This document shows positions 5,684 to 29,602 of a stretch of DNA of 32,000 bases, piece after piece. The stretch is from an uncultured Anaerolineales bacterium (GTDB taxonomy: Bacteria > Chloroflexota > Anaerolineae > CG2-30-64-16): NCBI GenBank assembly GCA_964551735.1, contig CAZKEF010000019.1, positions 51,958-83,957 of the forward strand, written 5' to 3'. Position numbers and translations under genes: made by a program. The first letter of the stretch is position 1, and every line of letters begins with the position of its first letter. The notes under the pieces are model-generated. The model made no database searches. It saw only the letters and a list, made by a program, of their open reading frames with translations, and was not told where the DNA came from.

Positions 5684-5753
5684 GGCATACCTCCATTTGG
5701 GTGGACCGATAAGAATGGACTTATCAGCAAGATTGGGGGAGATCTGTATGCGC

Positions 5754-5782
5754 AGAATATCACTAACCAAGGTTGATGTCAA
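5754..5782 (-). promoter_or_regulatory. Sigma70-like promoter for the large surface-protein gene
   Basis: The minus strand reads TTGACA (5782-5777), a 17-nt spacer, then TATTCT (5759-5754) with TGa immediately upstream (extended -10). It sits about 70 nt upstream of the ATG at 5683. Confidence 0.5.
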
Positions 5783-5827: not shown

Positions 5828-7171
5828 CTACTCAGCCGCCAACACCTCCGCCGTCCAAGCGCGCGCCTGCCGGGCAAACGCGGGCACGTCCACCCGAGCC
5901 AGCAACCAGATGCAGGCCAGCAGCCCGACGGCCTCGATCATGAACACGGCCGCGTAAGCCACCGACAGTTGGCCGCTGATCGCCAACGCCACATCGCGTA
6001 CCACACCGCCCATCGCGATGCCGGCCCCGCGCGATGCCAGTTGGATCACCGACCACAACGCCAGGTACGCGCCCGCCTGCCGCTCCACGTTGACCGCCAT
6101 CAGCAGGCTGACCCCGCCCACGGTGAAGATGCCGAACCCCAGGCCGAATACCACCAGGATCGGCCGGACCACAGACAGGTTTTCGGTCAGCGAGGCCGCG
6201 CCCAATGCCAGCAGCGGCAGCGCCAGCAACGCCAGGCCCCAGCTCGTGGTGCCCGCCTGCTGGTCGGGCCGCCGGCGCCGGGTCAGCGCCAGGGTGCCCA
6301 CCATGCTCACCACCACCCCTATGCCCCAGTACGCGTTGAAGCGCGTCGTCTCGCCCGCGGCCAGGCCGAACACGTCGCCGCCGAACGGCTCCAGCATGGC
6401 GTCTTGCATGAACGCGAAGAATGCGGACGCGGCCAGGAAGATCGCGTAGCGGCGCGCGCGGGAATCGGCCCACAGTGCGCCGAAGGTGCGGCGAAACGAC
6501 GGCGGGGCTGGGGATGACTGGGGGGCTGCCGCAACCGGCCGCTCCTCCCGCCACACCGAGGCGAACCAGAAGAAGGCTGCGCCGGCCATGCCGATAGCCA
6601 CCAGCCGGGCGAAAGCAGCCAGGTCGTATACGGGCATCACCCCCGCGTAGATCGCCGGGATGAACGCGAAGCTGACCACCAGCATGAGCTGCACGATGCC
6701 CACCGCCTGGCCGCGCTTCTCGTAAGGCGCGCTGTCGTGCACCAGCGCCAGGAACGGTGCGCCGGAGATCAGCGTGCCCACGCCGTAGGTGAGGAAAGAC
6801 GCCAGCGCTAACCCCCAGCCCAACAGGGAGCCCGCGTCCCGCGCGATGGCAACCACCGACAACGGCAGCAGCGGCAGCGCCAACAGCATCAGCAGCCGGC
6901 CCAGCCAGATGTACGCCACCCGCCGGCTGCCCCGGATCGGCCGCGTATCCGAACGGTGACCGGCCCACAACGTCAACGGGGCCAGCAGGTAGCGCAGCGC
7001 GGTCAGCAACGCCACCGGCCACGCCGCGACGCCCAGGTCGCTGATCAAGATCCGGTTCCAGACTGCGGACGTCAACAGGTCGGCCAGAGACGAGCCGATG
7101 TGGAAGCTGCCCAGCTTGAAAGAACGTGGGATGCTGAAGCTGACCTCTTGTTCAGCATTGCCTTCAACCAT
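5828..7171 (-). CDS. BCD/PucC-family MFS transporter
   Basis: The protein is polytopic and hydrophobic. The N-terminal signature FKLGSFHIGSSLADLLTSAVWNRILISDLGVAAWPVALLTALRYLLAPLTLWAGHRSDTRPIRGSRRVAYIWLG matches my memory of the PucC/LhaA (BCD) MFS family. The start is ambiguous: ATG 7171 has AGGAG 12 nt upstream, ATG 7183 abuts that AGGAG, and the ORF extends to a TTG at 7243. Confidence 0.75.
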   Translation of the reverse strand: MVEGNAEQEVSFSIPRSFKLGSFHIGSSLADLLTSAVWNRILISDLGVAAWPVALLTALRYLLAPLTLWAGHRSDTRPIRGSRRVAYIWLGRLLMLLALPLLPLSVVAIARDAGSLLGWGLALASFLTYGVGTLISGAPFLALVHDSAPYEKRGQAVGIVQLMLVVSFAFIPAIYAGVMPVYDLAAFARLVAIGMAGAAFFWFASVWREERPVAAAPQSSPAPPSFRRTFGALWADSRARRYAIFLAASAFFAFMQDAMLEPFGGDVFGLAAGETTRFNAYWGIGVVVSMVGTLALTRRRRPDQQAGTTSWGLALLALPLLALGAASLTENLSVVRPILVVFGLGFGIFTVGGVSLLMAVNVERQAGAYLALWSVIQLASRGAGIAMGGVVRDVALAISGQLSVAYAAVFMIEAVGLLACIWLLARVDVPAFARQARAWTAEVLAAE

Positions 7172-7286
7172 AATCCGACGCATCTCCTGTCCACCAAAAC
7201 CAATGCCCCCGGGCAATCTGCCCAAGGACATTGAGTGTATCAATCAGCGGCGTCTGGCACAGTAAATCAGCTTGCTATCTGGCCGT

Positions 7287-10761: not shown

Positions 10762-12858
10762 ATGATCGAATACGAGGACTTCTCCATCAAGATCGAACCG
10801 CCGCGGGATGGTGTCTACCCGGTCATCGTGCTGCGCTCGCCGGCCGGCGAAGGCCGCGCCACCATGCAGCTTCCGTTCGATCCGGGCCAGGTGGGCCTGC
10901 TGTTGACCGGTTTCGGCCTGGCCGTGCGCGGCGGCGGCCCGGCCAGGTCCGCAGACGCAGGGGAGCGCGCAGGAATGGCGCCGGCCGAGATCGGCGACCG
11001 GCTTTTCCAGGCGCTTTTCTCCGGCCCGGTGCGCTCGCTGCTGGATCGCAGCCTGGGGATGACCGACAGGCAGACGCGCAAGGGGCTGCGCCTCAAGCTG
11101 CATATTGACCCCGAATCGCCTTCGCTGGCCCTGGTCGCCAACCTGCCCTGGGAATACCTCTACGACAAAGACCGCCGGGACTTCCTCAACCTGTCCAAAT
11201 TCACCCCAATCATCCGCTACCTCGATGTGCAGCGCCCCAGCAACCCCGTGGCGGTCACGCCGCCGCTGCGCGTCCTGGTTGTCATGGCCAGCCCGGCCGG
11301 CTATGCGCCCCTTGACCTCGACACGGAGCGCAGGATGATCGAAGACAGTTGGGCCGACAAACCGAACGTGGAGGTCGAATTTATCCAGCGCGCCGCCCTA
11401 TCAGAGCTGCAAGATCGGCTCAGCAGCCGGCCATACCACGTCGTGCACTATATGGGACACGGCGACTTCGACGAGGAGACCGGTGAAGGGGTGCTCATGC
11501 TCGAGGATGCCCGCGGCCAGGCGCAGGTGCTCACCGGCAGCACGCTGGCCATGCTGTTGCGCGACGTGCCCACGCTAGGCCTGGTCTTCCTGAACGCGTG
11601 CGAATCGGCCCGGATCACCCGGCAAGACAGCCTGGATCCCTTCGCGGGGCTGGCCGCGGCGATGGTGCTGGCCGGCGTGCCGGCCGTGGTCGCCATGCAG
11701 TTCGCCATCTCCGACCGCGCCGCCATCGCCTTTGCCGAACGCTTCTATCCCCTACTGGCCACGGGTAAAGCTGTGGATCTGGCAGTTGCAGAAGGTCGAC
11801 GGGCGATCCGGCTCATCGAGTCGCGGGGCGCGGAGTGGGGCACGCCAGTGCTCTTCATGCGCGTGCCAACCGGCGACGTGTTCACCATCCTCCCTCAGGC
11901 CAGAGTGACCCCGGCGGATACCCCCGGCGAACACCAGCCGGCCGTGGCGCAGCGACTGCAAGACGAGCCGCCCATCGCGCCCCCAACGCCAGCAACCAAG
12001 GCTGGTTCCGGCCAGGGAAAAACGACCCTCAGCAAGCTCGCCGGCCGCCCCACCAGCGGGGATACGAAGGCAGAGGCCAAACCACCTGCGTCAACGGAGA
12101 CAACCACGACCAAGACGCCGGCAAAGAAACGACCGGCCCAAAGCACCGCGACCCAGTCCAAAGCAAAGCCGGCCACGGCAGCGACACCCAAACGCGAGTC
12201 ACCGCCCAGCGCCGGGCCTGCGCCGACATCCAAACAGCCTGCGGCAACCCAAGCGCGGCCGGCCAAACCGCCTGTGCAGAGCACGATATCACGGACCGAG
12301 CCCACGCCGACCGCCGCGAACCCAACAGGTGGAACGCCGACCGCCGTCAAGCTGACGACCGCGCCTGAACGCCCGGGCGACGCCCAGCCGCCGGTCGAGC
12401 GCCAACAGCTCGCGACGGCTGCCGCGCCGGATGCGTTCCGGCCCGAAGAGTTGGCCGCGCTGCTGGCACGCTATCGCCGCGGCTCGTTCTACACCAGCCC
12501 TAACATCCCGGCCGACAAGCTGGCCAAGGCGCGGCAGAAGTGCGAAGTGCCGGCCTCCGAGCCGATCGCCGGCCTTCTGGAAAACGCAATGGGGCTTTTT
12601 GGCTTCGTGGACTACATGCTGTTCGGCGGCACGGGCATCTACTACTTCAACTCCAATTATCCAGGCGGCGGCCAGCCTGGACCCGGTCACGTACCCTATC
12701 GCGAGTTCCCGGGGCGTGAGTTTCGCGCCGACAACTTTCGCTCGCGCGTCTGGTTGGATCGCGAGCATTTCTTCGACAACCGGTTTGCCTCGACGCACGG
12801 GCCGTCAGCGATCGTGGAGATCCTCAACGCGATCCGGGCGAAGATCATGGGGCATTAG
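10762..12858 (+). CDS. CHAT-domain (caspase-fold) protease with a long disordered linker and an uncharacterised C-terminal module
   Basis: A GAGGAG RBS lies 10 nt upstream. The N-terminus YEDFSIKIEPPRDGVYPVIVLRSPAGEG is typical of CHAT proteins. The catalytic dyad context is intact: HVVHYMGHGDF (His) and LVFLNACESAR (Cys). About 150 aa of P/T/A/K-rich low complexity follow (aa ~395-545), then a ~170-aa C-terminal domain (SFYTSPNIPADKLAKARQKCEVPASEPIAGLLENAMGLFGFVDYMLFGGTGIYYF...). Confidence 0.85.
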   Translation: MIEYEDFSIKIEPPRDGVYPVIVLRSPAGEGRATMQLPFDPGQVGLLLTGFGLAVRGGGPARSADAGERAGMAPAEIGDRLFQALFSGPVRSLLDRSLGMTDRQTRKGLRLKLHIDPESPSLALVANLPWEYLYDKDRRDFLNLSKFTPIIRYLDVQRPSNPVAVTPPLRVLVVMASPAGYAPLDLDTERRMIEDSWADKPNVEVEFIQRAALSELQDRLSSRPYHVVHYMGHGDFDEETGEGVLMLEDARGQAQVLTGSTLAMLLRDVPTLGLVFLNACESARITRQDSLDPFAGLAAAMVLAGVPAVVAMQFAISDRAAIAFAERFYPLLATGKAVDLAVAEGRRAIRLIESRGAEWGTPVLFMRVPTGDVFTILPQARVTPADTPGEHQPAVAQRLQDEPPIAPPTPATKAGSGQGKTTLSKLAGRPTSGDTKAEAKPPASTETTTTKTPAKKRPAQSTATQSKAKPATAATPKRESPPSAGPAPTSKQPAATQARPAKPPVQSTISRTEPTPTAANPTGGTPTAVKLTTAPERPGDAQPPVERQQLATAAAPDAFRPEELAALLARYRRGSFYTSPNIPADKLAKARQKCEVPASEPIAGLLENAMGLFGFVDYMLFGGTGIYYFNSNYPGGGQPGPGHVPYREFPGREFRADNFRSRVWLDREHFFDNRFASTHGPSAIVEILNAIRAKIMGH

Positions 12859-19312: not shown

Positions 19313-21097
19313 ATGAAACAACGAACTGCGCTGACGGGTTGGCTCCTTCGCCTGCGCCAGGCATTATCCGCCCACCGATGGGTCATCATCGGCCTGCTCT
19401 GGCTAGCCACTCTCCTCTTAGGCTATATCGGTTTCAGCAACTACGCGATGGCTACAGGCGGTGTCCAAGCGCGCATGGACACGCTTTATCTGACGATCCA
19501 GCTCTTTATCTTGGAGTCGGGATCGGTGCCCGGTCCGAAGCCGTGGGAACTGGAGGCCGCGCGGTTGCTGGCCCCCACTGTGGCGGCATACACCGCCGTG
19601 CAAGCGTTGGCGCTGCTGTTTGCAGAGCAATTCCAGGCCCTTCAGCTCCGCTTCGCACGCCACCACGAGATCATCTGTGGGCTGGGCCGTCGCGGCACGC
19701 TGTTGGCCCGTTCTTTTCGGGCGCAGGGCCATCGGGTTGTCGTCATCGAACAGGACCACAACAACGACGCCATCAGAGCCTGCCGGCAGCAGGGTATCAT
19801 CGTGCTCATTGGTGACGCCCGCAACGCTGATCTGCTCCTACGCGCCGGCGTGCTGCACGCTCGCCATCTGATCGCCGTGTGCGACGATGATGGGGTAAAC
19901 GCCGAGATCGCCGTGCAGGCCCGACGGCTGTCCGCTCGCCGGGGCGGGTTGCCCCTCACGTGCCTGGTGCACCTGGTGCAACCGCAGTTGTGTGAGTTGT
20001 TGCACGACCGCAGCTTCGATTCAGCCAATCATAACACCTTCCGCCTGGAATTCTTCAATACGTTTGACCTGGGCGCGCAACTCTTGCTGGAGAGATTCCC
20101 GCCGCTGCGGGAAGGGCAAACCGGGCCACCGCACATGGTGCTCCTGGGGTTCGGCAGCCTGGGGCAAAGCCTGGCCCTCCGCGCCGCACGCGCTCGGACG
20201 TGTGGCCGTGAACCCCCCAATGAGCGCTTGCGGATCACAGTGGTCGATCGCGAGGCCGAGCGAAAAGTCAAGCTGATCATTCTGCGGTATCCCCGGCTGC
20301 ACGAAGCGTGTGACTTGGTTCCGTGCGCGATTGACCTGCGGGGGCCCGAGTTTCAACAGGCGGACTTCCTGCGGGATGAGGCGGGCCAGCTGTGCGTCAC
20401 CGCTATCTACAGTTGCCTTGACGACGATGCACAGGGGCTAATGGCCGCGCTGACGTTGGCAGCCCATGTGCGCGATCAGGATATCCCTATCGTCATCCGC
20501 ACCAGCAGCCGCGGTGGCCTGGCAAGCCTGCTCTACCGGGATGACGCCACAGACAGTTACAGCTCACTGCACGCATTTCCTCTCCTGGAGTACAGTTGCA
20601 CGCCGAGCCTGGTTTTGGGGGGCATGCATGAAACCGTGGCCCGCGCATTGCATCAACGGTATGTGCAACAAGGCGAGGCGCAAGGCCAGACCCCCGCATC
20701 GAATCCCTCCATAGTGCCCTGGGACCAATTGACGGCCGAAATCCAAGAGGGCAACCGCACCCAGGCGGATGCGATCAGCGCGATGCTCCGTGCAGCAGGG
20801 TACAGCCTGGCCCCACTCACAGATTGGAGCGCCTGGCGATTCCGCTTCCCCGAAGCTGATGTCGAGCTGATGGCCCAATTGGAGCACAAACGTTATGTTA
20901 CCGAACGGCTCCGTGCCGGCTGGTCCCTGGGGCCTAAAGACATCGCCGAAAAAACGAATCCGAACCTGGTGCCGTGGGAACAACTGACGCCCGACGCGCA
21001 AGAGCGCACCCGCCACCCCATCCGTGAGCTACCCTGCATCTTGGCCGAGGCCGGGCTTGAAGTGTATCCGATGAAAAGGGGTGGCAAACATGGATGA
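19313..21097 (+). CDS. Channel-like 2-TM protein with tandem Rossmann (TrkA-N/RCK-like) domains and a C-terminal bipartite RyR module
   Basis: The N-terminus has TM1 WVIIGLLWLATLLLGYIGF, a pore-helix-like DTLYLTIQLFILESGSVPGP (no TVGYG filter) and TM2 LLAPTVAAYTAVQALALLF. Rossmann 1 is EIICGLGRRGTLLARSFRAQGHRVVVIEQD. Rossmann 2 is HMVLLGFGSLGQSLALRAA. The C-terminal RyR-like repeats are ARALHQRYV...VPWDQLTAEIQEGNRTQADAI and LEHKRYVTERLRAGWSLGPKDIAEKTNPNLVPWEQLTPDAQERTRHPIRELPCILAEAGLEV. Confidence 0.75.
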   Translation: MKQRTALTGWLLRLRQALSAHRWVIIGLLWLATLLLGYIGFSNYAMATGGVQARMDTLYLTIQLFILESGSVPGPKPWELEAARLLAPTVAAYTAVQALALLFAEQFQALQLRFARHHEIICGLGRRGTLLARSFRAQGHRVVVIEQDHNNDAIRACRQQGIIVLIGDARNADLLLRAGVLHARHLIAVCDDDGVNAEIAVQARRLSARRGGLPLTCLVHLVQPQLCELLHDRSFDSANHNTFRLEFFNTFDLGAQLLLERFPPLREGQTGPPHMVLLGFGSLGQSLALRAARARTCGREPPNERLRITVVDREAERKVKLIILRYPRLHEACDLVPCAIDLRGPEFQQADFLRDEAGQLCVTAIYSCLDDDAQGLMAALTLAAHVRDQDIPIVIRTSSRGGLASLLYRDDATDSYSSLHAFPLLEYSCTPSLVLGGMHETVARALHQRYVQQGEAQGQTPASNPSIVPWDQLTAEIQEGNRTQADAISAMLRAAGYSLAPLTDWSAWRFRFPEADVELMAQLEHKRYVTERLRAGWSLGPKDIAEKTNPNLVPWEQLTPDAQERTRHPIRELPCILAEAGLEVYPMKRGGKHG

Positions 21098-23570
21098 AAA
21101 AACATCTGATTTCGGATGGACGCAGGCCCAGATCGCACAATATGAGCTGGCCTTCCCGCGCTATCAGCAATATGCCGACACGCTGCACAGCGTGCTGAAC
21201 CAGGCCACCAAGAAACATGCGCCCCACGCGATCGTACAAGCGCGACCCAAGGCCATCGCCAGTTTCGCGGAGAAGATCCAGCGCAAGCGCCACAAGTACC
21301 GCGACCCGATCAACCAGATCACCGACCTGTGCGGCGGCCGAGTTATCACGCACACCCCGGAGGAAGTCCGGGCGATGTGCGCCTTCATCGAGCAGCATTT
21401 CACCATTGACTGGGATAACACCATCGATGTATCGCAGCGCCTCAAGCCGACCGAGTTCGGCTATCGGTCAGTGCATTACATCGCGCAGTTCAAGCCCGGT
21501 GTCTTCCCCAACGATATTGTCACCACGGAAATCCCAGAGACAGTGTACGGCCTCAAAGCCGAAATCCAAGTCCGCACCATTTTGGAGCACGCCTGGGCTG
21601 ATTTCAACCATCGGCTGGTCTATAAGAGCCCCTTCCCCATCCCCACCAAATGGCAGCGCGAATTCGCGGGCCTGGCCGCCATCCTGGAACGCACAGACAC
21701 CGCGTTTGCCGCCATTGAAACCGGATTCAAGACCTACGCGACCAACTATGGCACCTACATGACCGCTGAACAGATGCGGGATGAGATCGCTTTGCTGGAG
21801 ATCGTCATGGCATGTGACCCCGACAACGTCGATCTCGCCCATCGGATCGGCAAGTTGGCGGTTACGTTGGGCGATTGGAAGAAGGCGATCAGCATCTTCT
21901 CACGTTATGTTCACACAGGCTATCAACCCATCCTCAAGGACCTCGGGATCGCGCTGTGCAAGCTGCACGTTGAGAGGCCGGACAGCCCCGAGTATCAGCA
22001 AGGCCGGCGCTACCTGGAGCAGGCCAGCGCGCCTGAATACCGGGATGCGGATGCCCTGGCGTCGCTGGCAAGCACCTGGAAACGGTCTGACCCGGATCGG
22101 GCGCGGCAACTCTACCGGCAAGCATTTGAGGCGAATCCCGAAGATCCGTATGCGTTGGGGCAGTACCTGGAATACGAGATCGCCCATCGACGCGACATGC
22201 ACCTGGCAACACTGCTCCGCCCGGTCATCGAAGCGGCGATCGAACGGTGTCGCGAGCGCGCAGAGGTGGGGGTCGACCTGCCGTGGGCATACTACGACAT
22301 CGGCAGGTTCTCGCTACTGCTAGATAGACCCTATGATAGCCTGAACGCTTACATTAGGGCCGTCCACTTAACCAACGATGACTGGATGGTCGAAACCTCA
22401 TTGCAGTCGGTGGAGCGTCTCGCCGTGGTGGCTGCGATCCTACCAGGTCATGCATGGGTGCGACGCTTCCTATGGCTGGCGCGCGCGACCAAATTCGACG
22501 TGGCGCAGGCCCGAGAGGAGCTCAAGCGGCTGGCATCAGCCGGCCAAGCGCCGATTCGCGGGCCAGTGGTATTGGTGGCCGGGGCCTGCGATGCCAGCGA
22601 GGAGCACCTGATCCAGGGCTACCGGCCCCTGTTGATGACCGCCTTTGCCGGCTTCCACGGCACCATCATCTCAGGCGGCACCCGCGCCGGGGTCGCCGGC
22701 CTGGCGGGTGACGTGCAGCAGACCTACCCGGCCGACATCCGCACCATCGGCTATGTCCCGCAGCGACGCCCCACCGATGTCATGATGGATGAGCGCTACG
22801 GTGAGATCCGTTACACCACGGGCGATGACTTCAGCCCGCTGGAGCCGCTCCAATACTGGACCGACCTGGTCGCCTCCGCGATTGCCGCGTCCGATGTCAA
22901 GCTGATCGGCATGAGCGGAGGGACCATCGCCGCAGTGGAATACCGTATGGCCCTGGCGCTGGGCGCACGGGTCGCGGTGATTGAGGCCAGCGGCCGGGCC
23001 GCGGCCAGGCTACTTGCCGACGACAACTGGCGCACCTCGGAAGCGCTCCTGCTCTTGCCGGCCGAGGGACAGATCGTGCACGAATTCGTCCGCCCAACGA
23101 TGGACCAACTTCTGCCTGCACAGCGAGAACACATCGGCCAGGCCATCCACCGGGCCTACTGTGAAGCAGAGGCCAACCTCCTGCAGTACGACGATCCTGC
23201 GTTGGCGCCCTGGGGCGCGTTGCTGGACTATCTGAAGGAATCCAACCGGCTGCAGGCTGATCATATCCCGGAGAAGATGCGCCAGATCGGCTGCCGCATT
23301 GTGCCGGCGCACGGCCGCGCAGCAACACCGATCACGTTCACAGATGCCGAGATTGAGACGCTGGCTTGTGCCGAGCATGCGCGTTGGGTCATCGAGCGCG
23401 TACGCGACGGCTGGAAACCGGGCGCGCAACGCGACGTGTTGCACAAAATCAGTCCCTACCTCACAGCATGGGACGCGCTGCCCGAGGAAATCAAAGAGCG
23501 CAGCCGATGCATCGTGCGCAAGATCCCGACATTCCTTGCCGAGGTGCAGCTCGAAATTCAACGCGGGTGA
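21090..23570 (+). CDS. RelA/SpoT-family nucleotide pyrophosphokinase fused to TPR repeats, an LSDAT-type SLOG domain and a bipartite RyR module
   Basis: The ATG at 21090 overlaps the upstream stop (ATGGATGA) and has AAGGGGTGG upstream; an alternative GTG lies at 21081. The synthetase motifs are all present: ARPKAIASFAEKIQRK, DLCGGRVI, EFGYRSVHYI, AEIQVRTILEHAWADFNHRLVYK. The middle region is TPR-like (aa ~240-470). The SLOG part reads GPVVLVAGACD...TIISGGTRAGVAGLAGD...IGYVP...LIGMSGGTIAAVEYRMALALGARVAVIEASGRAAARLLAD, and the last motif resembles the GSGRaADlLA of TRPM-type LSDAT domains. The C-terminal RyR-like repeats are IHRAYCE...APWGALLDYLKESNRLQADHI and AEHARWVIERVRDGWKPGAQRDVLHKISPYLTAWDALPEEIKERSRCIVRKIPTFLAEV. 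Confidence 0.8.
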   Translation: MDEKTSDFGWTQAQIAQYELAFPRYQQYADTLHSVLNQATKKHAPHAIVQARPKAIASFAEKIQRKRHKYRDPINQITDLCGGRVITHTPEEVRAMCAFIEQHFTIDWDNTIDVSQRLKPTEFGYRSVHYIAQFKPGVFPNDIVTTEIPETVYGLKAEIQVRTILEHAWADFNHRLVYKSPFPIPTKWQREFAGLAAILERTDTAFAAIETGFKTYATNYGTYMTAEQMRDEIALLEIVMACDPDNVDLAHRIGKLAVTLGDWKKAISIFSRYVHTGYQPILKDLGIALCKLHVERPDSPEYQQGRRYLEQASAPEYRDADALASLASTWKRSDPDRARQLYRQAFEANPEDPYALGQYLEYEIAHRRDMHLATLLRPVIEAAIERCRERAEVGVDLPWAYYDIGRFSLLLDRPYDSLNAYIRAVHLTNDDWMVETSLQSVERLAVVAAILPGHAWVRRFLWLARATKFDVAQAREELKRLASAGQAPIRGPVVLVAGACDASEEHLIQGYRPLLMTAFAGFHGTIISGGTRAGVAGLAGDVQQTYPADIRTIGYVPQRRPTDVMMDERYGEIRYTTGDDFSPLEPLQYWTDLVASAIAASDVKLIGMSGGTIAAVEYRMALALGARVAVIEASGRAAARLLADDNWRTSEALLLLPAEGQIVHEFVRPTMDQLLPAQREHIGQAIHRAYCEAEANLLQYDDPALAPWGALLDYLKESNRLQADHIPEKMRQIGCRIVPAHGRAATPITFTDAEIETLACAEHARWVIERVRDGWKPGAQRDVLHKISPYLTAWDALPEEIKERSRCIVRKIPTFLAEVQLEIQRG

Positions 23571-23585
23571 AAGGAGGCGGACACC

Positions 23586-26567
23586 ATGGCATCGGAATCC
23601 AATAGATACGATGTCTTCATCAGCTATCCGCACGCCCAAAAGACGATGGCCGATGCCGTGTGCGCGACGTTGGAGCAGAATAAGATCCGCTGCTGGATCG
23701 CGCCCCGTGACGTGCTGCCCGGCGAACCGTTCGCGAAAGCCATCATCCGCGCCATGAACGAAAGCCGTTTGTTCGTCCTCGTCTTCAGCGCCGAGACCAA
23801 CGAGTCAAATCACGTAAAAAACGAAGTTGAGCGGGCGGTGTCCAAGGGGCTCTCGATCATCGTGTTCCGCGTTGAAGATGTCGTGCCTACCGAAGAGATG
23901 GAGTACTACCTGTCGCGGCGCCATTGGCTGGACGCGATGACGCCACCGATCGAGGCCCATTTCCAGAAACTGATCCAGGCCATCAGGGCGTTGCTGGCCA
24001 TCCCATCCTTGGAGGCCGCGCCGGACCAAAGCGAACAGAAGGTGGCCGACTTGCGCGTACGCGCCCGGGAAGCCGCGGCGCAAGCCGACTGGGACCTGGC
24101 CGTGGCCCTGCTAGGTCAGGCTGCGACGGTCTCACCCGATGACCCCAAGACCGCCGAGATGTTACAGGCCGTCCGGCGTGACCAGCATCTGGCTGACCTG
24201 CGCCGGCAAGCCCAAGAACGTCTGGCCATCCGCGACTGGACCGGCGCCATTGCCATCCTGGAGGAAGCCTCCAGCTTGCAGCCGGATGACGCCGACCTAA
24301 CGGCCATCTTGCGTCGCGCACAGAGCAGTCAGCGTCTGATCGAGCTGCGCGGCCAGGCTGAGGAGTTCCTGACCGTTCGAGATTGGGCCGGCGCCATCGC
24401 GATCTTGGAGAAAGCCATACAACTGGCCCCCGACGACCCTGAACTTACTGGCAGCTTGCGCCGCGCGCAACGCGGCCAAAGCCAGGATGATCTCAAAGCC
24501 CAGGCCCTGCACCTGGCCGCACAACACGATTGGCAGGGCGTGCTCGTGCTGCTGAAGCAGGCGCCCGAGCTGGCCGCAGAGGACGCCGAAGTGCAGCGGC
24601 TGGCAGCGCAAGCGGCGCGTGAGCAGCGGATCGCTGATCTGCAGGTGCGCGCCAAGTCAGCGTACAGCGCCCGGCAATGGGCGCAGGCGCTGCCGTTGCT
24701 GGAAGAGCTGCGCGCGTTGACGCCCGATGACGCCGCCGCCCGCGATATGCTGGCCACGACCACCCGCGAGGGCGCCCGCCAGAGGCAACTCGACGCGCTG
24801 ATAGCCCATGCCGAGGACACCGTGACCCGCGCACGCAGCGCGGCCACTACAGGCCAATGGGAGGCGGCCGAGCGCGGTTGGCAGGATGCCGCCTACGCAT
24901 GGGGCACCGTAGTCACCGCGCTGGAAGAGCACCTCGCGATGGCGCCCCAGGACGCTACGCGGCGGGAGCGCCTGACCGAGGCTCAGCGCGGGCAAAAGGA
25001 GGCGGCACAACAGGCTGGACGCCTGCGGGATCTGGCCCAGCGCTATGCCGACGCGCAGGCCGCGCTCGACGCGGCCCGGCCCGACCAGGCCGTGCCGTTG
25101 CTCAGCGCCATCATAGCCGAGGCGCCGGGCTATCGCGATACGGTGGAGCTGTTGCGCCGTGCGCAACGCAAGGTGAAAGGTGGTCCCTTCCCGCGCCGCC
25201 GCATGCTCTGGATCGGCGCAGCCGCACTGGTGCTCATCGTGGTAACGGCGGCAATCTTGCTGTCGGGCGTCTTGCAGCGCGGCGCCGCGTCTGAGCGCGC
25301 GACGACATTGCAGCAAGCGCTGACGAACCAATGGGTGGACGCGCAGATCCGCGGCACTGGCGCGGCCTACGGCGACTGCATCACGGCCCGGCTGACGCGG
25401 CGCATCCCAGACATCCTGCCGCTTGACCTCGCCCAGGGCACCCTTCTGCTCAGCAAAACCTCAACAGTGCAGGACATGGTCGTGCTGCGGGTCCGGGCCA
25501 TCATCAACCAGGATGGTGGCCTAACCCCCACAGACGCGATCCGCATCGCCGATGACAACCCCCAGGAGTATCTGATCGAAGCATATGGGCTGAACAGCAG
25601 CCTGGCGGCGCCGGGCGTCGGGGCCGCCTTCGTCGTCGCCGGCCCGGCAGACGAAGCTGTTCAAAGCACCCTGCGGGCAGCCGCCCAGCTCACCCCTGAC
25701 GGCGCCGCACAGGCGGGCGCAGCGCTGCAATTGGCGCTTTGGCTGCACGCTGACCACGAAAACCGTGCTGCCATCTGCCAGCGCATCAACTGCAAGGCCG
25801 AGGACCTGGCGCTGGCAGAACAGATCCTGGGGCTGGCCGGCTTCGGTCCGCCCCCCACACCCACTGCCACGGCCACAGCCCTGCCGACCGCCACCCTGAC
25901 GGCGGAACCAACGATCGCCACGCCCTTCCTGCGCCGCGCAGCCACCGACACCCCCACGCCGACCGCCACTGCGACATCCACGCCGCTGCCATCAGCCACC
26001 ATGACCGCCACCGCAACGCCGGCCCGCAGCGCTACACCGACGCCACGCCCAAGCGCCACCGCAACGCGCACCCCGGCCGCGCCGCTGCGCATCGTCACGC
26101 CAACGCGTCCGCCTGCGCCGCCGGCGTCCGGCCTGGCCCCGCAGACACCGGCCGACGGCCAGATCTTCATCGGCCGCAGCACTGTCATCCGGCTGGCCTG
26201 GACGCCCGCCACACGGCCGCTGGCTGGGGACGAATATTACCTGGTGACGATCCTTTTCCCTCACGAACAAGCAACATGGACCGACTCTCAATGGACGCGC
26301 ACTCCAGAGGTCACCGTACCGGCTTACCTGTACGATAATGTGACCGGCGACCGCAGCTTCCGCTGGCAGGTCTCCCTGGTGCGCCTGAACGCGGGCGACC
26401 CTTCAGGAGACCCGCAAGGCAAGACGACCCTGATCGTTGCACCCGGCGCGTGGCGCACCTTCAGGTGGCTGCCCGAGGCTGAAGGCGGGGGCGGGGGTGG
26501 GGGCGGCGAGGTCATACCGACGAACACCCCCCGCCCTGAAGAACCGACAATAACGCCCAGGCCTTAA
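23586..26567 (+). CDS. N-terminal TIR-domain protein with 49-aa helical repeats, one TM helix and a large extracytoplasmic C-terminal region
   Basis: An AAGGAGG RBS lies 8 nt upstream, and the gap from the previous stop is 15 nt. The TIR_2-like N-terminus is YDVFISYPHAQKTMADAVCATLEQNKIRCWIAPRDVLPGEPFAKAIIRAMNESRLFVLVFSAETNESNHVKNEVERAV. Five to six repeats of the DWxxAIAILEEAxxLxPDD type follow. The TM helix is RRRMLWIGAAALVLIVVTAAILLSGVL, with positive charges on the N-side, so the TIR domain is cytoplasmic. After it come a ~190-aa domain, a PT-rich linker, a ~130-aa beta-rich domain and a Gly8 tract. Confidence 0.85.
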   Translation: MASESNRYDVFISYPHAQKTMADAVCATLEQNKIRCWIAPRDVLPGEPFAKAIIRAMNESRLFVLVFSAETNESNHVKNEVERAVSKGLSIIVFRVEDVVPTEEMEYYLSRRHWLDAMTPPIEAHFQKLIQAIRALLAIPSLEAAPDQSEQKVADLRVRAREAAAQADWDLAVALLGQAATVSPDDPKTAEMLQAVRRDQHLADLRRQAQERLAIRDWTGAIAILEEASSLQPDDADLTAILRRAQSSQRLIELRGQAEEFLTVRDWAGAIAILEKAIQLAPDDPELTGSLRRAQRGQSQDDLKAQALHLAAQHDWQGVLVLLKQAPELAAEDAEVQRLAAQAAREQRIADLQVRAKSAYSARQWAQALPLLEELRALTPDDAAARDMLATTTREGARQRQLDALIAHAEDTVTRARSAATTGQWEAAERGWQDAAYAWGTVVTALEEHLAMAPQDATRRERLTEAQRGQKEAAQQAGRLRDLAQRYADAQAALDAARPDQAVPLLSAIIAEAPGYRDTVELLRRAQRKVKGGPFPRRRMLWIGAAALVLIVVTAAILLSGVLQRGAASERATTLQQALTNQWVDAQIRGTGAAYGDCITARLTRRIPDILPLDLAQGTLLLSKTSTVQDMVVLRVRAIINQDGGLTPTDAIRIADDNPQEYLIEAYGLNSSLAAPGVGAAFVVAGPADEAVQSTLRAAAQLTPDGAAQAGAALQLALWLHADHENRAAICQRINCKAEDLALAEQILGLAGFGPPPTPTATATALPTATLTAEPTIATPFLRRAATDTPTPTATATSTPLPSATMTATATPARSATPTPRPSATATRTPAAPLRIVTPTRPPAPPASGLAPQTPADGQIFIGRSTVIRLAWTPATRPLAGDEYYLVTILFPHEQATWTDSQWTRTPEVTVPAYLYDNVTGDRSFRWQVSLVRLNAGDPSGDPQGKTTLIVAPGAWRTFRWLPEAEGGGGGGGGEVIPTNTPRPEEPTITPRP
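24087..24854 (+). repeat. Intragenic tandem repeat with an exact 147-nt (49-codon) period, coding TPR-like helical hairpins
   Basis: The D/Q-W codons that open each unit fall at 24087, 24234, 24381, 24528 and 24675, which are exactly 147 nt apart. A longer 180-nt unit then runs to 24855. The units are diverged at the DNA level. Confidence 0.8.
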
Positions 26568-26608
26568 GGTTGGCAGCCGCGAACCAGACGCGCAGAGGAG
26601 GGACAACC

Positions 26609-29602
26609 ATGAAAACAAACCCGACACGCCACCGCACCCCCCGCATAGGGCTGCTGGCGCCGCTGCTGATCGCGACGCTGATCCTGGTCGGCGGCCTCAA
26701 CAGCGCCGCCGCGCCGCCGGCTCAAACAGGCGCCCCCTTCGAGGCGCGGCCGCTGCCGCCGGAGGCGCTCTCGTGGGGCGGATCTCCCGCCGTCAGTGCG
26801 CAAGCCTCGCGCAGCCCCAAGCTCGACTCATCCCTGGACGGCCTGGCCGCCGCAGCCCAGGATTCCCCGCAAACGGCATTGGCTCTGGCCCTCTCCCGCT
26901 CGCTGAAGTTGTCGGGAGATCGGGTTCAAGTACAGATCGTCACCCACGCGGCCGGGCTGCAACGAGCCATCCAGGCGGTGGCCGAGTCCGGCGGCGAAGT
27001 GACCAAAATCGGCAGCGACGCAGCCCTGATCCAGGGATGGCTGCCGGTCACGGCCCTGGAGGCCGTAGCCGCGCACGACGATATCTATCGCATCCACCGG
27101 CCGGCGGAACTGATCTACCTGGAACACCCGCAGGCTGGCAGTGTGACGACCGAAGGGCTGGCGGCGCTCAACGGCCCGGCCTGGCACACGGCCGGCTACC
27201 GGGGCGCTGGCGTCAAGATCGGCATCATTGACGGCGGCTTCCTGGGCTACACAGGCCTGCTGGGCACGGACCTGCCAGCGTCGGTCACTGCAAAAAACTT
27301 CGTGGACGGCGAAACCGACGGGCAGGTTGACGGGACCTCCAAACACGGCACCGCCTGCGTGGAGATCATCTACGATGTGGCGCCTGATGCGACCTTCTAC
27401 CTGGCCAAGATCGCCACGAACCTGGATCTGCAAGCAGCCGTGGCCTGGCTCAAAGACACGCACCACGTAGACGTGATCTCTACCTCCATCGGGTGGTACC
27501 ACTTGACGCCGGGCGACGGCACCGGTGAGTTTGCCGACCTGGTGCAGGATGCCCGAGACGCCGGCATCTTGTGGGCCACGGCGGCCGGGAGCGTACGCGA
27601 GGCGCACTGGGGCGGCCTGTACTATGACCCCGGCGGCACCGACACGCATCACTATAACCTCGAACAGGACGTGAACTATTTCGGCCCCGGCGACGGGAAC
27701 GCTTACCTGATCCCTGCGGGGTACCCGGTGACCGTCTTGCTCCGCTGGGATGACTGGACGGTCGTGAACCAGGATTACGATCTCTTCCTGCTGCGTTGGA
27801 ACGGCGAAAGCTGGGATATCGTTGCCGAAAGCAGTCAGGTTCAAGACGGCAGCCCGGGTCAGACGCCCACCGAGGACGTCTCAATCGTGGCCAGCGGCGC
27901 ATCTGCGCCCTATGGCTTCGTCATCGTGCGTTATGACAGCGACCGCGCGGTCAACTTCGAGGTGTTTGCGCCCAACCCTGGCGCGCGCCTCGATGAGATC
28001 TTGCCTGCCCGCAGCCTGGCTAACCTGGCGGACGCGCCGGACGTGGTCAGCGTGGCGGCGGTAGACGTGGTGTCGCCCTACCCGCAGGAGGTGTTCAGCT
28101 CAGAAGGGCCGACCAACGGACCCGGCGGCGCGGAAACGGGCGGGTTCATCAAGCCGGATATCGCCGCCTATTCCAGCGTGTCCACCGTCAGCTACGGCAC
28201 TACAGACAAGTTCAGCGGCACCTCGGCCGCTGCGCCCCACGTGGCCGGCGCCGCGGCGTTGGTGTTGAACGCCTACCCAGCCTATACCCCGAACCAAGTG
28301 GAATCGTTCCTGGAGGGGCGTGCCGTGGACATGGGGGCCAGCGGGATGGATACGATCTACGGCTACGGTCGGCTGCACCTGGGCGCCCCGCCGTCAGCCA
28401 CCACCACAACCCCCTCTCCCAGCCCAACGCCGACAGGAACGGTGACACGCACCGCGACGCCCACGGTGACCCGGACGCCAACCCCGACGATCACCCGAAC
28501 CCCCACGGCCAGGCTGCTCTTCCTGCCCCTGGTGCTGAAAAGCGGACTCTGCGACATTTATGAGCCGAACGATAGCATCGCTGCGGCCTGGGGTCCCCTG
28601 ATATCGGGCCAGGATTACCGCGCACGCCTATGCAAAGGCGACTACGAGGATAACTACTACCTGAACGCACTGCACACCCAACCGCTGGTCGTCAGGATAC
28701 GCCTGCCAGCCGCTCTGGTGAACCACACTGACGCCTGGATTTACCATGAGAGCAACCTCAAGACACCGCTTCCCGGTTGCGGCCGCGGCCCCATCACCAG
28801 CACGGATGAAACCGTTAGCTGTGCGATCACCCTGGACGGCCGCTACACGATCCGGCTATACACACACGACTCGAACGTCTACTATGAGAACAACCAGGAT
28901 TACATCTTGACCGCGACCTTTGCGCCCCAGGGCGGCACGCCCGTGTCACGAACACTCCTCTCCGTCGGCGATGCAACGGTCCTGGAGGGGTACTCAGGCT
29001 TTAACACAGGCACGGCAGCGGACATGTGGGCGGGCTATGATGACGGCATGGAACCCGACGGCAAGATCGTGCGCAGCCTGATCAAGTTCGACCTGAGCAG
29101 TGTGCCCGCGGGCGCCACCGTGCAAAGCGCCAAGCTGCGGGTCTACTACATGGGCTACTATGACTTTAGCAACCGCGAGCGCACCATCACCGCATACCGG
29201 TGCGTCGGCAACTGGACTGAGCTGGGCGTCAATTGGAACAACAAACCCAGCCCGGGCACGGCCTACGGCAGCGTAGTCATCATCTCAAACACCAATTGGG
29301 GCTGGCGCGAGTTGGACGTGCAGGGCCTGGTGCAGGGGTGGGTCAACGGCAGCATCCCCAACCAGGGCGTCATGCTGCGCGGACCGGAGGTCTCCGGCGC
29401 CGACTCGTCCTATCGCACTTTCAGCACGCGTGAGGGCCCCAACGCGCCCCAGTTGGCGATCACCTACCTTGCTGTAGCAGCCGCAAGCCCACCGCCGACA
29501 ATGCAGGCGCCTGTGCCGGCTGGCCCGAGCCTGCGTGAACAGTTGGGCAGCCCGAGCGCACCGACGGACGCCGACGGCAGGGAGCAGCAGATGTCGCGTT
29601 AG
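26609..29602 (+). CDS. Secreted S8 (subtilisin-like) serine peptidase with C-terminal PPC-like and DNRLRE-like domains
   Basis: A GAGGAGGG RBS lies 6 nt before the ATG at 26609. The signal peptide is MKTNPTRHRTPRIGLLAPLLIATLILVGGLNSAAA. The catalytic triad contexts are GVKIGIIDGGF (Asp), HGTACVEII (His) and GTSAAAPHVAGAAALV (Ser). After a PT linker come LLFLPLVLK, then CDIYEPNDSIAAAW (pre-peptidase C-terminal-like) and LLSVGDATVLEG...SLIKFDLSSVPAGATVQSAKLRVYY...WTELGVNWNNKP (DNRLRE-like, from recall). Confidence 0.85.
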   Translation: MKTNPTRHRTPRIGLLAPLLIATLILVGGLNSAAAPPAQTGAPFEARPLPPEALSWGGSPAVSAQASRSPKLDSSLDGLAAAAQDSPQTALALALSRSLKLSGDRVQVQIVTHAAGLQRAIQAVAESGGEVTKIGSDAALIQGWLPVTALEAVAAHDDIYRIHRPAELIYLEHPQAGSVTTEGLAALNGPAWHTAGYRGAGVKIGIIDGGFLGYTGLLGTDLPASVTAKNFVDGETDGQVDGTSKHGTACVEIIYDVAPDATFYLAKIATNLDLQAAVAWLKDTHHVDVISTSIGWYHLTPGDGTGEFADLVQDARDAGILWATAAGSVREAHWGGLYYDPGGTDTHHYNLEQDVNYFGPGDGNAYLIPAGYPVTVLLRWDDWTVVNQDYDLFLLRWNGESWDIVAESSQVQDGSPGQTPTEDVSIVASGASAPYGFVIVRYDSDRAVNFEVFAPNPGARLDEILPARSLANLADAPDVVSVAAVDVVSPYPQEVFSSEGPTNGPGGAETGGFIKPDIAAYSSVSTVSYGTTDKFSGTSAAAPHVAGAAALVLNAYPAYTPNQVESFLEGRAVDMGASGMDTIYGYGRLHLGAPPSATTTTPSPSPTPTGTVTRTATPTVTRTPTPTITRTPTARLLFLPLVLKSGLCDIYEPNDSIAAAWGPLISGQDYRARLCKGDYEDNYYLNALHTQPLVVRIRLPAALVNHTDAWIYHESNLKTPLPGCGRGPITSTDETVSCAITLDGRYTIRLYTHDSNVYYENNQDYILTATFAPQGGTPVSRTLLSVGDATVLEGYSGFNTGTAADMWAGYDDGMEPDGKIVRSLIKFDLSSVPAGATVQSAKLRVYYMGYYDFSNRERTITAYRCVGNWTELGVNWNNKPSPGTAYGSVVIISNTNWGWRELDVQGLVQGWVNGSIPNQGVMLRGPEVSGADSSYRTFSTREGPNAPQLAITYLAVAAASPPPTMQAPVPAGPSLREQLGSPSAPTDADGREQQMSR

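Follow-up and report, generated by a model that had tools for sequence, protein, structure and literature searches.

What does a RelA/SpoT-type nucleotide pyrophosphokinase respond to when two potential nucleotide-binding modules are fused to it? This question is raised by a gene on the + strand (positions 21090 to 23570) of a 32,000-nucleotide stretch of contig CAZKEF010000019.1 from an uncultured Anaerolineales bacterium (Chloroflexota); the whole stretch is referred to below as the window. The predicted protein is built of four modules, namely a RelA/SpoT homolog (RSH) synthetase, a TPR region of ~250 amino acids (aa), an LSDAT-type SLOG domain, and RyR (R12) repeats in tandem. The gene is followed by a TIR gene and preceded by a gene for a channel-like TrkA_N-RyR protein. 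The domain layout and the neighborhoods of related genes suggest a ligand-gated nucleotide pyrophosphokinase, with predicted ligand, product, and phenotype, in a TIR-linked signaling module that probably serves in conflict or defense. Our confidence in this reading is evenly balanced.

Gene Organization and Domain Architecture

Translation from ATG 21090 yields a product of 826 aa, which is 100% identical to the NCBI protein P0001 (826 aa), whereas use of GTG 21081 would yield 829 aa. Residue numbers in this protein refer to the 829-aa frame. A Shine-Dalgarno-like AAAGGGG lies 8 nt 5' of ATG 21090, which is the likely start codon. This ATG overlaps the TGA of the upstream TrkA_N-RyR gene (ATGGATGA), an arrangement that suggests translational coupling of the two genes. 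A promoter and terminator scan gave signals at chance level. Three genes follow one another on the + strand, with no NUDIX gene in the window, and the features of this operon are as follows.

19313 to 21097, + strand: TrkA_N-RyR membrane protein of 594 aa (Pfam, hydropathy, PDB RCK matches)
21090 to 23570, + strand: RSH-TPR-SLOG-RyR protein (open reading frame list, identity to P0001)
21081 to 21725, + strand: residues ~1-215, RelA/SpoT-type synthetase (pyrophosphokinase) domain (Pfam PF04607, motifs, profile, Foldseek)
21756 to 22520, + strand: residues ~226-480, TPR-like all-helical linker (sub-threshold Pfam TPR_19, TPR_17, and TPR_2; AlphaFold2; Foldseek)
22548 to 23096, + strand: residues ~490-672, LSDAT-type SLOG (Rossmannoid) domain (PF18171, AlphaFold2, Foldseek, conservation)
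23127 to 23315, + strand: residues ~683-745, degenerate RyR/R12 repeat 1 (alignment to the upstream protein, internal repeat, conservation)
23343 to 23567, + strand: residues ~755-829, RyR/R12 repeat 2 (Pfam PF02026, PDB, Foldseek)
23586 to 26567, + strand: TIR-TPR protein of 993 aa with a transmembrane (TM) helix, 15 nt after the RSH gene (Pfam, alignment to TIR-STING, hydropathy)

An earlier reading of this DNA, made from the sequence only, had described a synthetase-only RSH enzyme followed by a TPR region and a Rossmannoid segment of the SLOG/LSDAT (TRPM N-terminal) pattern. Its domain list was correct for the synthetase, TPR, and SLOG parts but overlooked the C-terminal tandem RyR module, which also occurs in the product of the upstream gene. 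All motif strings that it quoted are present in the translation, both in the synthetase (RPKAIASFAEK, DLCGGRVI, GYRSVH, EIQVRT, and HAWADFNHRLVYK) and in the SLOG domain (VLVAGACD, ISGGTRAGVAGLAGD, IGYVP, MSGGTIAAVE, and VIEASGRAAARLLAD). The TPR assignment was borne out by several weak Pfam matches below threshold at residues ~226-360, by AlphaFold2 secondary structure consisting of helical hairpins throughout residues ~226-480, and by Foldseek neighbors of the SPY/OGT TPR type. The Foldseek output for the full-length model was dominated by such TPR/OGT-type matches and was uninformative on interdomain regulation.

The Synthetase Domain

The N-terminal domain matched RelA_SpoT (PF04607, residues 55-183, E 1.6e-17; 64.2 bits, with the cut-off at 27). 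The Pfam scan of the protein found no HD hydrolase domain, in agreement with the synthetase-only description. The motifs are intact, including R55-x-K57, S61-F-x-E-K65, D82-L-C-G-x-R87, E125-F-G-Y128-R-S-x-H132, E161-x-Q163-V-R-T, H170-x-W172, H177, and Y181-K182, and every one of them is invariant or near-invariant across 31 aligned homologs of full length, which are 49-76% identical. In enzymes of this type, R-x-K and S..EK bind ATP, D-x-x-G-x-R binds Mg, GYRS-H forms the G-loop, and E-x-Q-x-R-T is catalytic.

A profile of residues 1-225 searched against the PDB matched RelQ/RelP-type small alarmone synthetases (SAS) at 2e-17 to 1e-11, whereas CapRel (7ztb) was matched at only 3e-3 and long Rel at 0.02. 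Foldseek with the full-length AlphaFold model likewise retrieved SAS1/SAS2 (TMt 0.62-0.67). The acceptor loop, KPxEFGYRSxH, is a near-match to KPNGYRSLH of RelP/RelQ. The N-terminal domain is thus apparently an active, synthetase-only RSH whose nearest relatives are the (p)ppGpp-making SAS enzymes. The predicted product is most likely (p)ppGpp or (pp)pApp, with ATP as the donor of pyrophosphate and a purine nucleotide as its acceptor. Within the synthetase, the model is of low confidence only in the G-loop (122-128) and at residues 181-208, and therefore the acceptor site is not readable from it.

The label "toxSAS-like" (resembling toxic SAS), which the sequence-only reading had attached to the enzyme, gained no support from the sequence because the synthetase resembles RelQ/RelP much more strongly than it does CapRel. 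An antitoxin-like partner is also absent from the window; the NUDIX gene that accompanies about half of the related loci does not occur here. At 829 aa with TPR, SLOG, and RyR regions, the protein is not a single-domain SAS either.

The SLOG Domain

LSDAT_prok (PF18171) matched residues 495-651 slightly below its threshold (E 1.8e-5; 24.6 bits, with the cut-off at 25.4), whereas relatives exceeded this threshold (33.5-39.3 bits) and precomputed matches existed for most of 120 homologs. The AlphaFold2 model of residues 470-690 was of high confidence (pLDDT 91.2, pTM 0.89). Its best Foldseek matches in the PDB were the N-terminal MHR1/2 regions of TRPM8, TRPM2, TRPM4, TRPM5, TRPM7, and TRPM3 (E 5e-7 to 1e-5, TMq 0.5-0.6), including the TRPM2 entries 8sre, 8e6v, and 6pkx with bound ADP-ribose (ADPR). 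The molybdenum cofactor (Moco) carrier protein, which belongs to another SLOG family, was also a top neighbor (TMt 0.73). A sequence profile of the same region found nothing significant among all PDB sequences, so that TRPM was seen by the fold search only. The TRPM MHR1/2 neighbors of a confident model and the scores of the relatives above the Pfam threshold confirm, at the level of predicted structure, the LSDAT-type SLOG assignment of residues ~490-672 that the sequence-only reading had recognized. Of the two comparisons which that reading had named, TRPM2 MHR1/2 was among the best matches, whereas ThsA was not among the top 50 structural matches in the PDB.

Conserved columns in the SLOG domain included G501, G527-T-I-I-S-G-G-T534, G537, Y558, and G610-x-x-G-G-x-I-x-x-x-E620-Y621. 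Conserved polar residues, including D570-x-R-Y-x-E-x-R577, E588/Q591/W593/D595, and E620-Y621, could line the pocket of the domain. The GG-x-I-x-x-x-E-Y segment with its invariant E620 resembles the PGGxGTxxE motif; on this ground, a putative function as a LOG-like glycosidase was considered. One Eisenbacteria homolog (P0086; locus L003, 7001-9490) has a degenerate first glycine-rich loop (VVSRLNADGG in place of IISGGTxxG) and has lost R572/Y573, with the RSH and RyR motifs intact. This degeneration suggests that some lineages may do without the SLOG pocket.

The Tandem RyR Module

The C-terminus matched RyR (PF02026) at residues 758-826 (E 6.9e-10; 39.5 bits, with the cut-off at 27.4) and RyR repeats in the PDB at 4.6e-13. 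Alignment to the tandem of the upstream protein (34% identity over 146 aa, E 1e-28) revealed an additional, degenerate repeat, which was also visible in an internal repeat alignment of the C-terminus. Repeat 1 contains H690-x-x-Y693, D705-P706, W711, K719-E-S-N722-R, and D727, and repeat 2 contains H766-x-x-W769, S791-P792, W797, S808, and R809. In the Foldseek search with the full model, human RyR3 Repeat12 in complex with ADP/AMP-PCP was retrieved (TMt 0.59). Human RyR3 R12 binds ADP and AMP-PCP (PDB 9l9b/9ls7; PMC12627627).

A precedent for ligand binding comes from phage RyR-domain proteins. According to a May 2026 preprint (PMC13232231), two forms of cyclic ADP-ribose (cADPR) that are made by TIR proteins, 2'cADPR and 3'cADPR, are either cleaved or held tightly by RyDEP and its homologs. 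The ligand residues of RyDEP (H75, W78, H100, and D117) are conserved in animal R12 domains (PMC13232231). These residues correspond to H766, W769, S791, and S808 in repeat 2, with identical spacing, and to H690, Y693, and N722 in repeat 1 for the positions of H75, W78, and D117. H766 and W769 are present in 31/31 homologs, position 791 is Ser, Asn, or Thr, and position 808 is Asp in 27/31 homologs and Ser only in the clade of the window. The module thus appears, from the alignment, to retain the base-stacking and ribose-contact residues. Since the acid Asp is absent from the protein of the window (Asn in repeat 1, Ser in repeat 2), ligand binding is a more probable role for this module than glycosidase activity.

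Partner Proteins in the Operon

The upstream protein contains TrkA_N (1.3e-20) and RyR (8e-14, in two stretches) and matches the RCK domains of TrkA, KefC, and GsuK in the PDB. Its N-terminus, according to hydropathy, consists of a TM helix (24-42), a short helix (56-68), an "ESGSVPG" loop, and a second TM helix (85-103), followed by RCK/TrkA_N. No K+ selectivity-filter signature was found in this two-TM (2TM), P-loop-like region. Hydropathy and layout indicate that the protein may be a prokaryotic 2TM P-loop-like channel regulated by RyR domains.

The downstream protein begins with TIR_2 (E 7.6e-20), in which the catalytic Glu (E80) is kept according to the alignment to TIR-STING (6wt6). After the TIR domain come TPRs, a single TM helix (541-559), an extended extracytoplasmic part rich in Pro and Thr, and a C-terminal domain that had no Pfam match. 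This predicted topology resembles that of Toll receptors. A TIR gene with its catalytic Glu thus stands beside an effector gene with a candidate signal-binding domain, which is the arrangement of Thoeris-type systems.

Distribution and Conserved Neighborhoods of the Family

The family is large, with more than 1185 matches in 90% clusters, and the best 120 of these all have the same architecture. The SLOG profile retrieved 1003 representatives at 50% identity (653 with E <= 1e-30), and 499 of the 600 pattern matches in a metagenome scan encoded relatives. The sources of the family included Chloroflexota, Proteobacteria, Omnitrophica, Eisenbacteria, and, among the archaea, at least one metagenome-assembled genome (MAG), which belongs to Altiarchaeales, and the closest relatives of the gene in the window came from Anaerolineae MAGs. 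Current annotations of the family read only "RyR domain-containing protein" or "ppGpp synthetase." A phage origin of the family was rejected, as a scan of viral contigs recovered no relatives.

Neighborhoods were surveyed by calling open reading frames in 88 loci and searching them with seeds from the window and from annotated loci. The counts rest on metagenome contigs, and a single-protein scan of genome contigs gave only two close relatives. In the 27 well-flanked loci, which had at least 3 kb on both sides, neighbors were counted within 6 kb. A TIR or TIR-like DUF4062 protein occurred in 18/27 of these loci, a NUDIX protein of ~140 aa in 13/27, and a TrkA_N/RyR membrane protein also in 13/27, and two loci had none of the three. 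The TIR proteins that adjoin the RSH gene form one clade, being 40-80% identical to the TIR of the window over ~130 aa in at least 15 loci, and their C-terminal parts vary between TPR-TM, HEAT, and none. A constant TIR clade with varying C-termini is the pattern expected of a cognate signal generator.

The NUDIX gene is a direct, same-strand neighbor of the RSH gene in 37 of 75 loci and is missing from the window and from its closest relatives (L002 and L007). Its product is MutT/NudG-like and matches the PADLOC candidate PDC-S07. MutT and NudG lower (p)ppGpp in Escherichia coli (PMC7593582). The fullest set was found on one strand of an Anaerolineae MAG (L001), with genes for TrkA_N-RyR, a WD40 protein, NUDIX, RSH, and TIR. 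Other neighbors included giant STAND (AAA_16) proteins with WD40 or TPR repeats, many of which have an N-terminal TIR or DUF4062 domain. PADLOC matches of the large neighbors were mostly repeat-driven (HEAT-ARM, mad8, PDC-M37B, and DolB) and uninformative. A neighbor family of ~565 aa in six loci (e.g., L003, 1946-3643) has similarity to SLATT_1/DUF4231 below threshold (E ~3e-4). SLATT_1 proteins are 2TM effectors that associate with SMODS and SLOG domains, and in some loci this family may provide a pore-forming partner.

The TPR-SLOG module also has close relatives in other settings, which match the SLOG profile at E ~1e-64. In two proteins (P0200 and P0206, both of which end at contig ends), TPR-SLOG follows a Zn-ribbon, an adenylate/guanylate cyclase, and a STAND (AAA_16) NTPase. 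Three stand-alone SLOG-RyR proteins have 376-393 aa (P0163, P0173, and P0207), and a subset of the family members, of ~1055-1107 aa, carries an additional C-terminal KaiC/RecA-like ATPase (PF06745) after RyR (P0056, P0064, and P0066, as well as L016, 3550-6873, and L017, 5794-9117). RelA and cyclic nucleotide (cNMP) cyclase domains take equivalent slots in other conflict systems (PMC7159879). The fusion of TPR-SLOG to either RSH or a cNMP cyclase indicates that the output swaps between two nucleotide-messenger synthases, and the cyclase fusion suggests that the N-terminal enzyme may act as a relay by generating a second messenger and not simply as a toxin.

Proposed Mechanism

In the proposed module, the membrane-anchored, TPR-bearing, receptor-like TIR protein would, once triggered, convert NAD+ into an ADP-ribose-derived signal. 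This signal would be bound by the C-terminal half of the RSH protein, in the LSDAT SLOG pocket and/or in the tandem RyR/R12 pockets, a prediction based on homology to the ADPR-binding MHR1/2 of TRPM2 and to cADPR-binding RyR-domain proteins. Ligand binding would release or assemble the RelQ/RelP-like synthetase via the TPR scaffold, and the alarmone made by it would shut down growth or relay the signal. Because it carries the same RyR module, the co-transcribed 2TM/RCK channel-like partner is expected to respond to the same ligand, and ion flux would in this way be tied to the response. In about half of the related loci, the MutT/NudG-like NUDIX protein probably breaks down the alarmone or the signal, which would define the threshold and reset the system.

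The sequence-only reading had proposed that a small nucleotide binds the SLOG domain and controls the pyrophosphokinase. Small-nucleotide gating, which is itself a prediction, now has comparative support in the cognate TIR clade beside the RSH gene in at least 15 loci and in the catalytic Glu kept by the TIR of the window. As for its site, the SLOG domain offers a candidate pocket, but the RyR/R12 module is a second candidate ligand module, for which 2'cADPR and 3'cADPR provide the precedent (PMC13232231).

If this reading is true, an alarmone synthetase joins the outputs of TIR/NAD-derived immune signaling, and two major nucleotide networks of bacteria are thereby connected. The sensor half pairs the two modules that in animals lie on the cytosolic side of TRPM2, which is gated by ADPR, and of ryanodine receptors. 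Direct action of cADPR on RyR domains is a long-standing question, for which the operon would be a simple bacterial system of RyR-domain gating by TIR products. A more tentative proposition, which we lean against, is a bacterial relay in which a TIR-made ADP-ribose-type signal acts on forerunners of the LSDAT and R12 sensors and sets off an alarmone burst and an ion flux in parallel. Under such a relay, cADPR-type gating of an RyR-domain channel and ADPR-type gating of LSDAT would both be older than eukaryotes and would operate jointly within a single operon, and NAD-derived immune signaling would be linked directly to the stringent response.

Alternative Explanations

Several observations weigh against a TIR-gated alarmone synthetase. 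A TIR gene was not seen in roughly a third of the well-flanked loci, and NUDIX with RSH is the most frequent minimal pair, indicating that TIR input may not be obligatory. The phosphate-contacting His of RyDEP is replaced by Ser, Asn, or Thr in the family and its acid Asp by Ser in the window, and PADLOC assigned the RSH domain to a generic RSH model (PDC-S33) only. The accessible part of a 2025 survey of Thoeris types I-XI contained no RelA, ppGpp, RyR, or Nudix effector. The literature search found no characterization of LSDAT, SLOG, or RyR fusions to RelA or alarmone domains, although the 2015 paper that defined LSDAT may catalogue the fusion; experimental work on the family was likewise not found, which is consistent with the earlier statement that the fusion was uncharacterized as far as known. 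Three other points fit a physiological regulator equally well, including the unusually high full-length identity across phyla (~50%), the absence of relatives from the scanned viral contigs, and the housekeeping genes miaA, rnhB, and trmD that flank the operon in the window. Such a regulator would be an alarmone synthetase that uses SLOG/RyR to sense adenine nucleotides or metabolites derived from NAD and coordinates the stringent response with K+/ion homeostasis via its RCK-RyR partner, with TIRs as occasional neighbors in TIR-rich genomes. RCK/TrkA_N domains bind NAD(H) or nucleotides, and RyR3 R12 takes plain ADP/ATP analogues, in line with this role. We consider it unlikely, however, because a dedicated TIR clade co-varies with the RSH gene across phyla and the neighbors are mostly of kinds typical of conflict systems (TIR/DUF4062-STAND-WD40/TPR giants, NUDIX, and SLATT-like proteins). 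The N-terminal output is also swapped as in conflict systems, following the logic described previously (PMC7159879).

The frequent NUDIX neighbor raises the alternative of a toxin-antitoxin-like toxSAS, in which a growth-arresting RSH is checked by the adjacent NUDIX as a type-IV-like antitoxin that hydrolyzes its product, with no TIR signal, and in which TPR/SLOG/RyR serves as an autoinhibitory or phage-sensing "pseudo-antitoxin" comparable to that of the fused CapRel. The same-strand adjacency of the two genes, their status as the commonest pair, and the PADLOC matches of both partners (PDC-S07 for NUDIX and PDC-S33 for the RSH domain) are consistent with it, and small alarmone hydrolases (SAH) act as type IV antitoxins for toxSAS (PMC7229694). 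It is nevertheless quite unlikely, as NUDIX is lacking in the window and in the closest relatives, the synthetase profile is far nearer to housekeeping RelQ/RelP than to CapRel, the sensor module is also fused to a cyclase, and the cognate TIR clade would be left unexplained. The acceptor may instead be non-classical, such that the RSH pyrophosphorylates the 3'-CCA end of tRNA, as do FaRel2 and CapRel, or a TIR-derived ADPR nucleotide. RSH toxins with tRNA acceptors are known, CapRel 7ztb was a weak match, the acceptor site lies in the low-confidence parts of the model, and the enzyme is physically joined to two ADPR-type pockets. Such a product is very unlikely, given that KPxEFGYRSxH closely resembles KPNGYRSLH of RelP/RelQ and that the similarity to RelQ/RelP far exceeds that to CapRel.

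Other Genes in the Window

Other genes of note in the window lie on both sides of the three genes described above.

1505 to 5782, - strand: 1425-aa open reading frame with Ig-like (Big_13/Big_6) and carboxypeptidase-regulatory-like domains (domain matches), probably a large surface protein
5828 to 7243, - strand: PUCC-family protein (E 2e-73)
10762 to 12858, + strand: CHAT (caspase-like) protein of 698 aa (Pfam 4.7e-34; PADLOC SAVED_CHAT-type model 1.4e-16)
26570 to 29602, + strand: subtilase (Peptidase_S8) with CBM96, 2 nt after the TIR gene

The CHAT gene, ~8 kb upstream of the RSH gene, is another possible conflict-system gene. The PUCC family is usually tied to bacteriochlorophyll and light-harvesting; with the closest relatives of the RSH gene in Anaerolineae MAGs, the DNA may stem from a Chloroflexota member that is phototrophic or PUCC-bearing. 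Proteins with CBM96 and an M4 peptidase are also encoded downstream of the TIR gene in the close relative L007. The S8/CBM96 gene of the window could extend the operon in this clade specifically, or it could encode an unrelated secreted protease.

Comparison with Known Systems

By sequence as well as by structure, the N-terminal domain is most closely related to RelQ and RelP (SAS1/SAS2), with which it shares intact motifs and the absence of HD. These enzymes are single-domain tetramers of ~210 aa under pppGpp or RNA control, whereas the RSH protein carries ~600 additional aa of TPR-SLOG-RyR. It resembles toxSAS enzymes (FaRel, FaRel2, PhRel, and CapRel) as a synthetase-only RSH encoded in small operons in which a neighboring hydrolase could neutralize the product; this neighbor is NUDIX in the RSH-TPR-SLOG-RyR loci and SAH for toxSAS. 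CapRelSJ46 also has a fused C-terminal regulatory or sensor domain. On the other hand, the PDB profile scored 3e-3 for CapRel compared with 2e-17 for RelQ, and the sensor of the RSH protein is a nucleotide-pocket module rather than a pseudo-antitoxin that binds a phage protein.

The RyR module shares with RyDEP and other PF02026 proteins the His-x-x-Trp/Tyr motif and its spacing to the Asp position, and its tandem arrangement mimics the RyDEP dimer and RyR Repeat12. RyDEP is a stand-alone phage counter-defense protein, whereas RyR is here located at the C-termini of a cellular synthetase and a channel-like protein. Furthermore, the phosphate-binding His is replaced in the RSH protein, and the position of the acid Asp is occupied by Asn (repeat 1) or Ser (repeat 2). 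TRPM2 is similar in that TRPM MHR1/2 regions are nearest to the SLOG model and the family also associates with NUDIX and an ion-channel-like protein. In contrast to TRPM2, the family lacks a TRP channel, its LSDAT domain is joined to an enzyme and not to a pore, the sequence identity is just 13-18%, and the NUDIX partner is MutT/NudG-like and not NUDT9/ADPRase-like, as is NUDT9-H of TRPM2.

Type I Thoeris, which consists of ThsA (SIR2-SLOG) and ThsB (TIR), likewise places a TIR gene beside a pocket of the SLOG superfamily with an enzymatic output. The shared signaling logic would run from a TIR product through SLOG to the activation of an enzyme. The output of the RSH protein is a RelA/SpoT synthetase and not the SIR2 NADase of ThsA, its SLOG domain belongs to the LSDAT (TRPM) family, and the system adds a tandem RyR module, a TPR scaffold, and channel-like and NUDIX partners. 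Based on this comparison, a Thoeris-like logic with an alarmone-synthetase output and an added RyR sensor would be new among TIR-SLOG modules.

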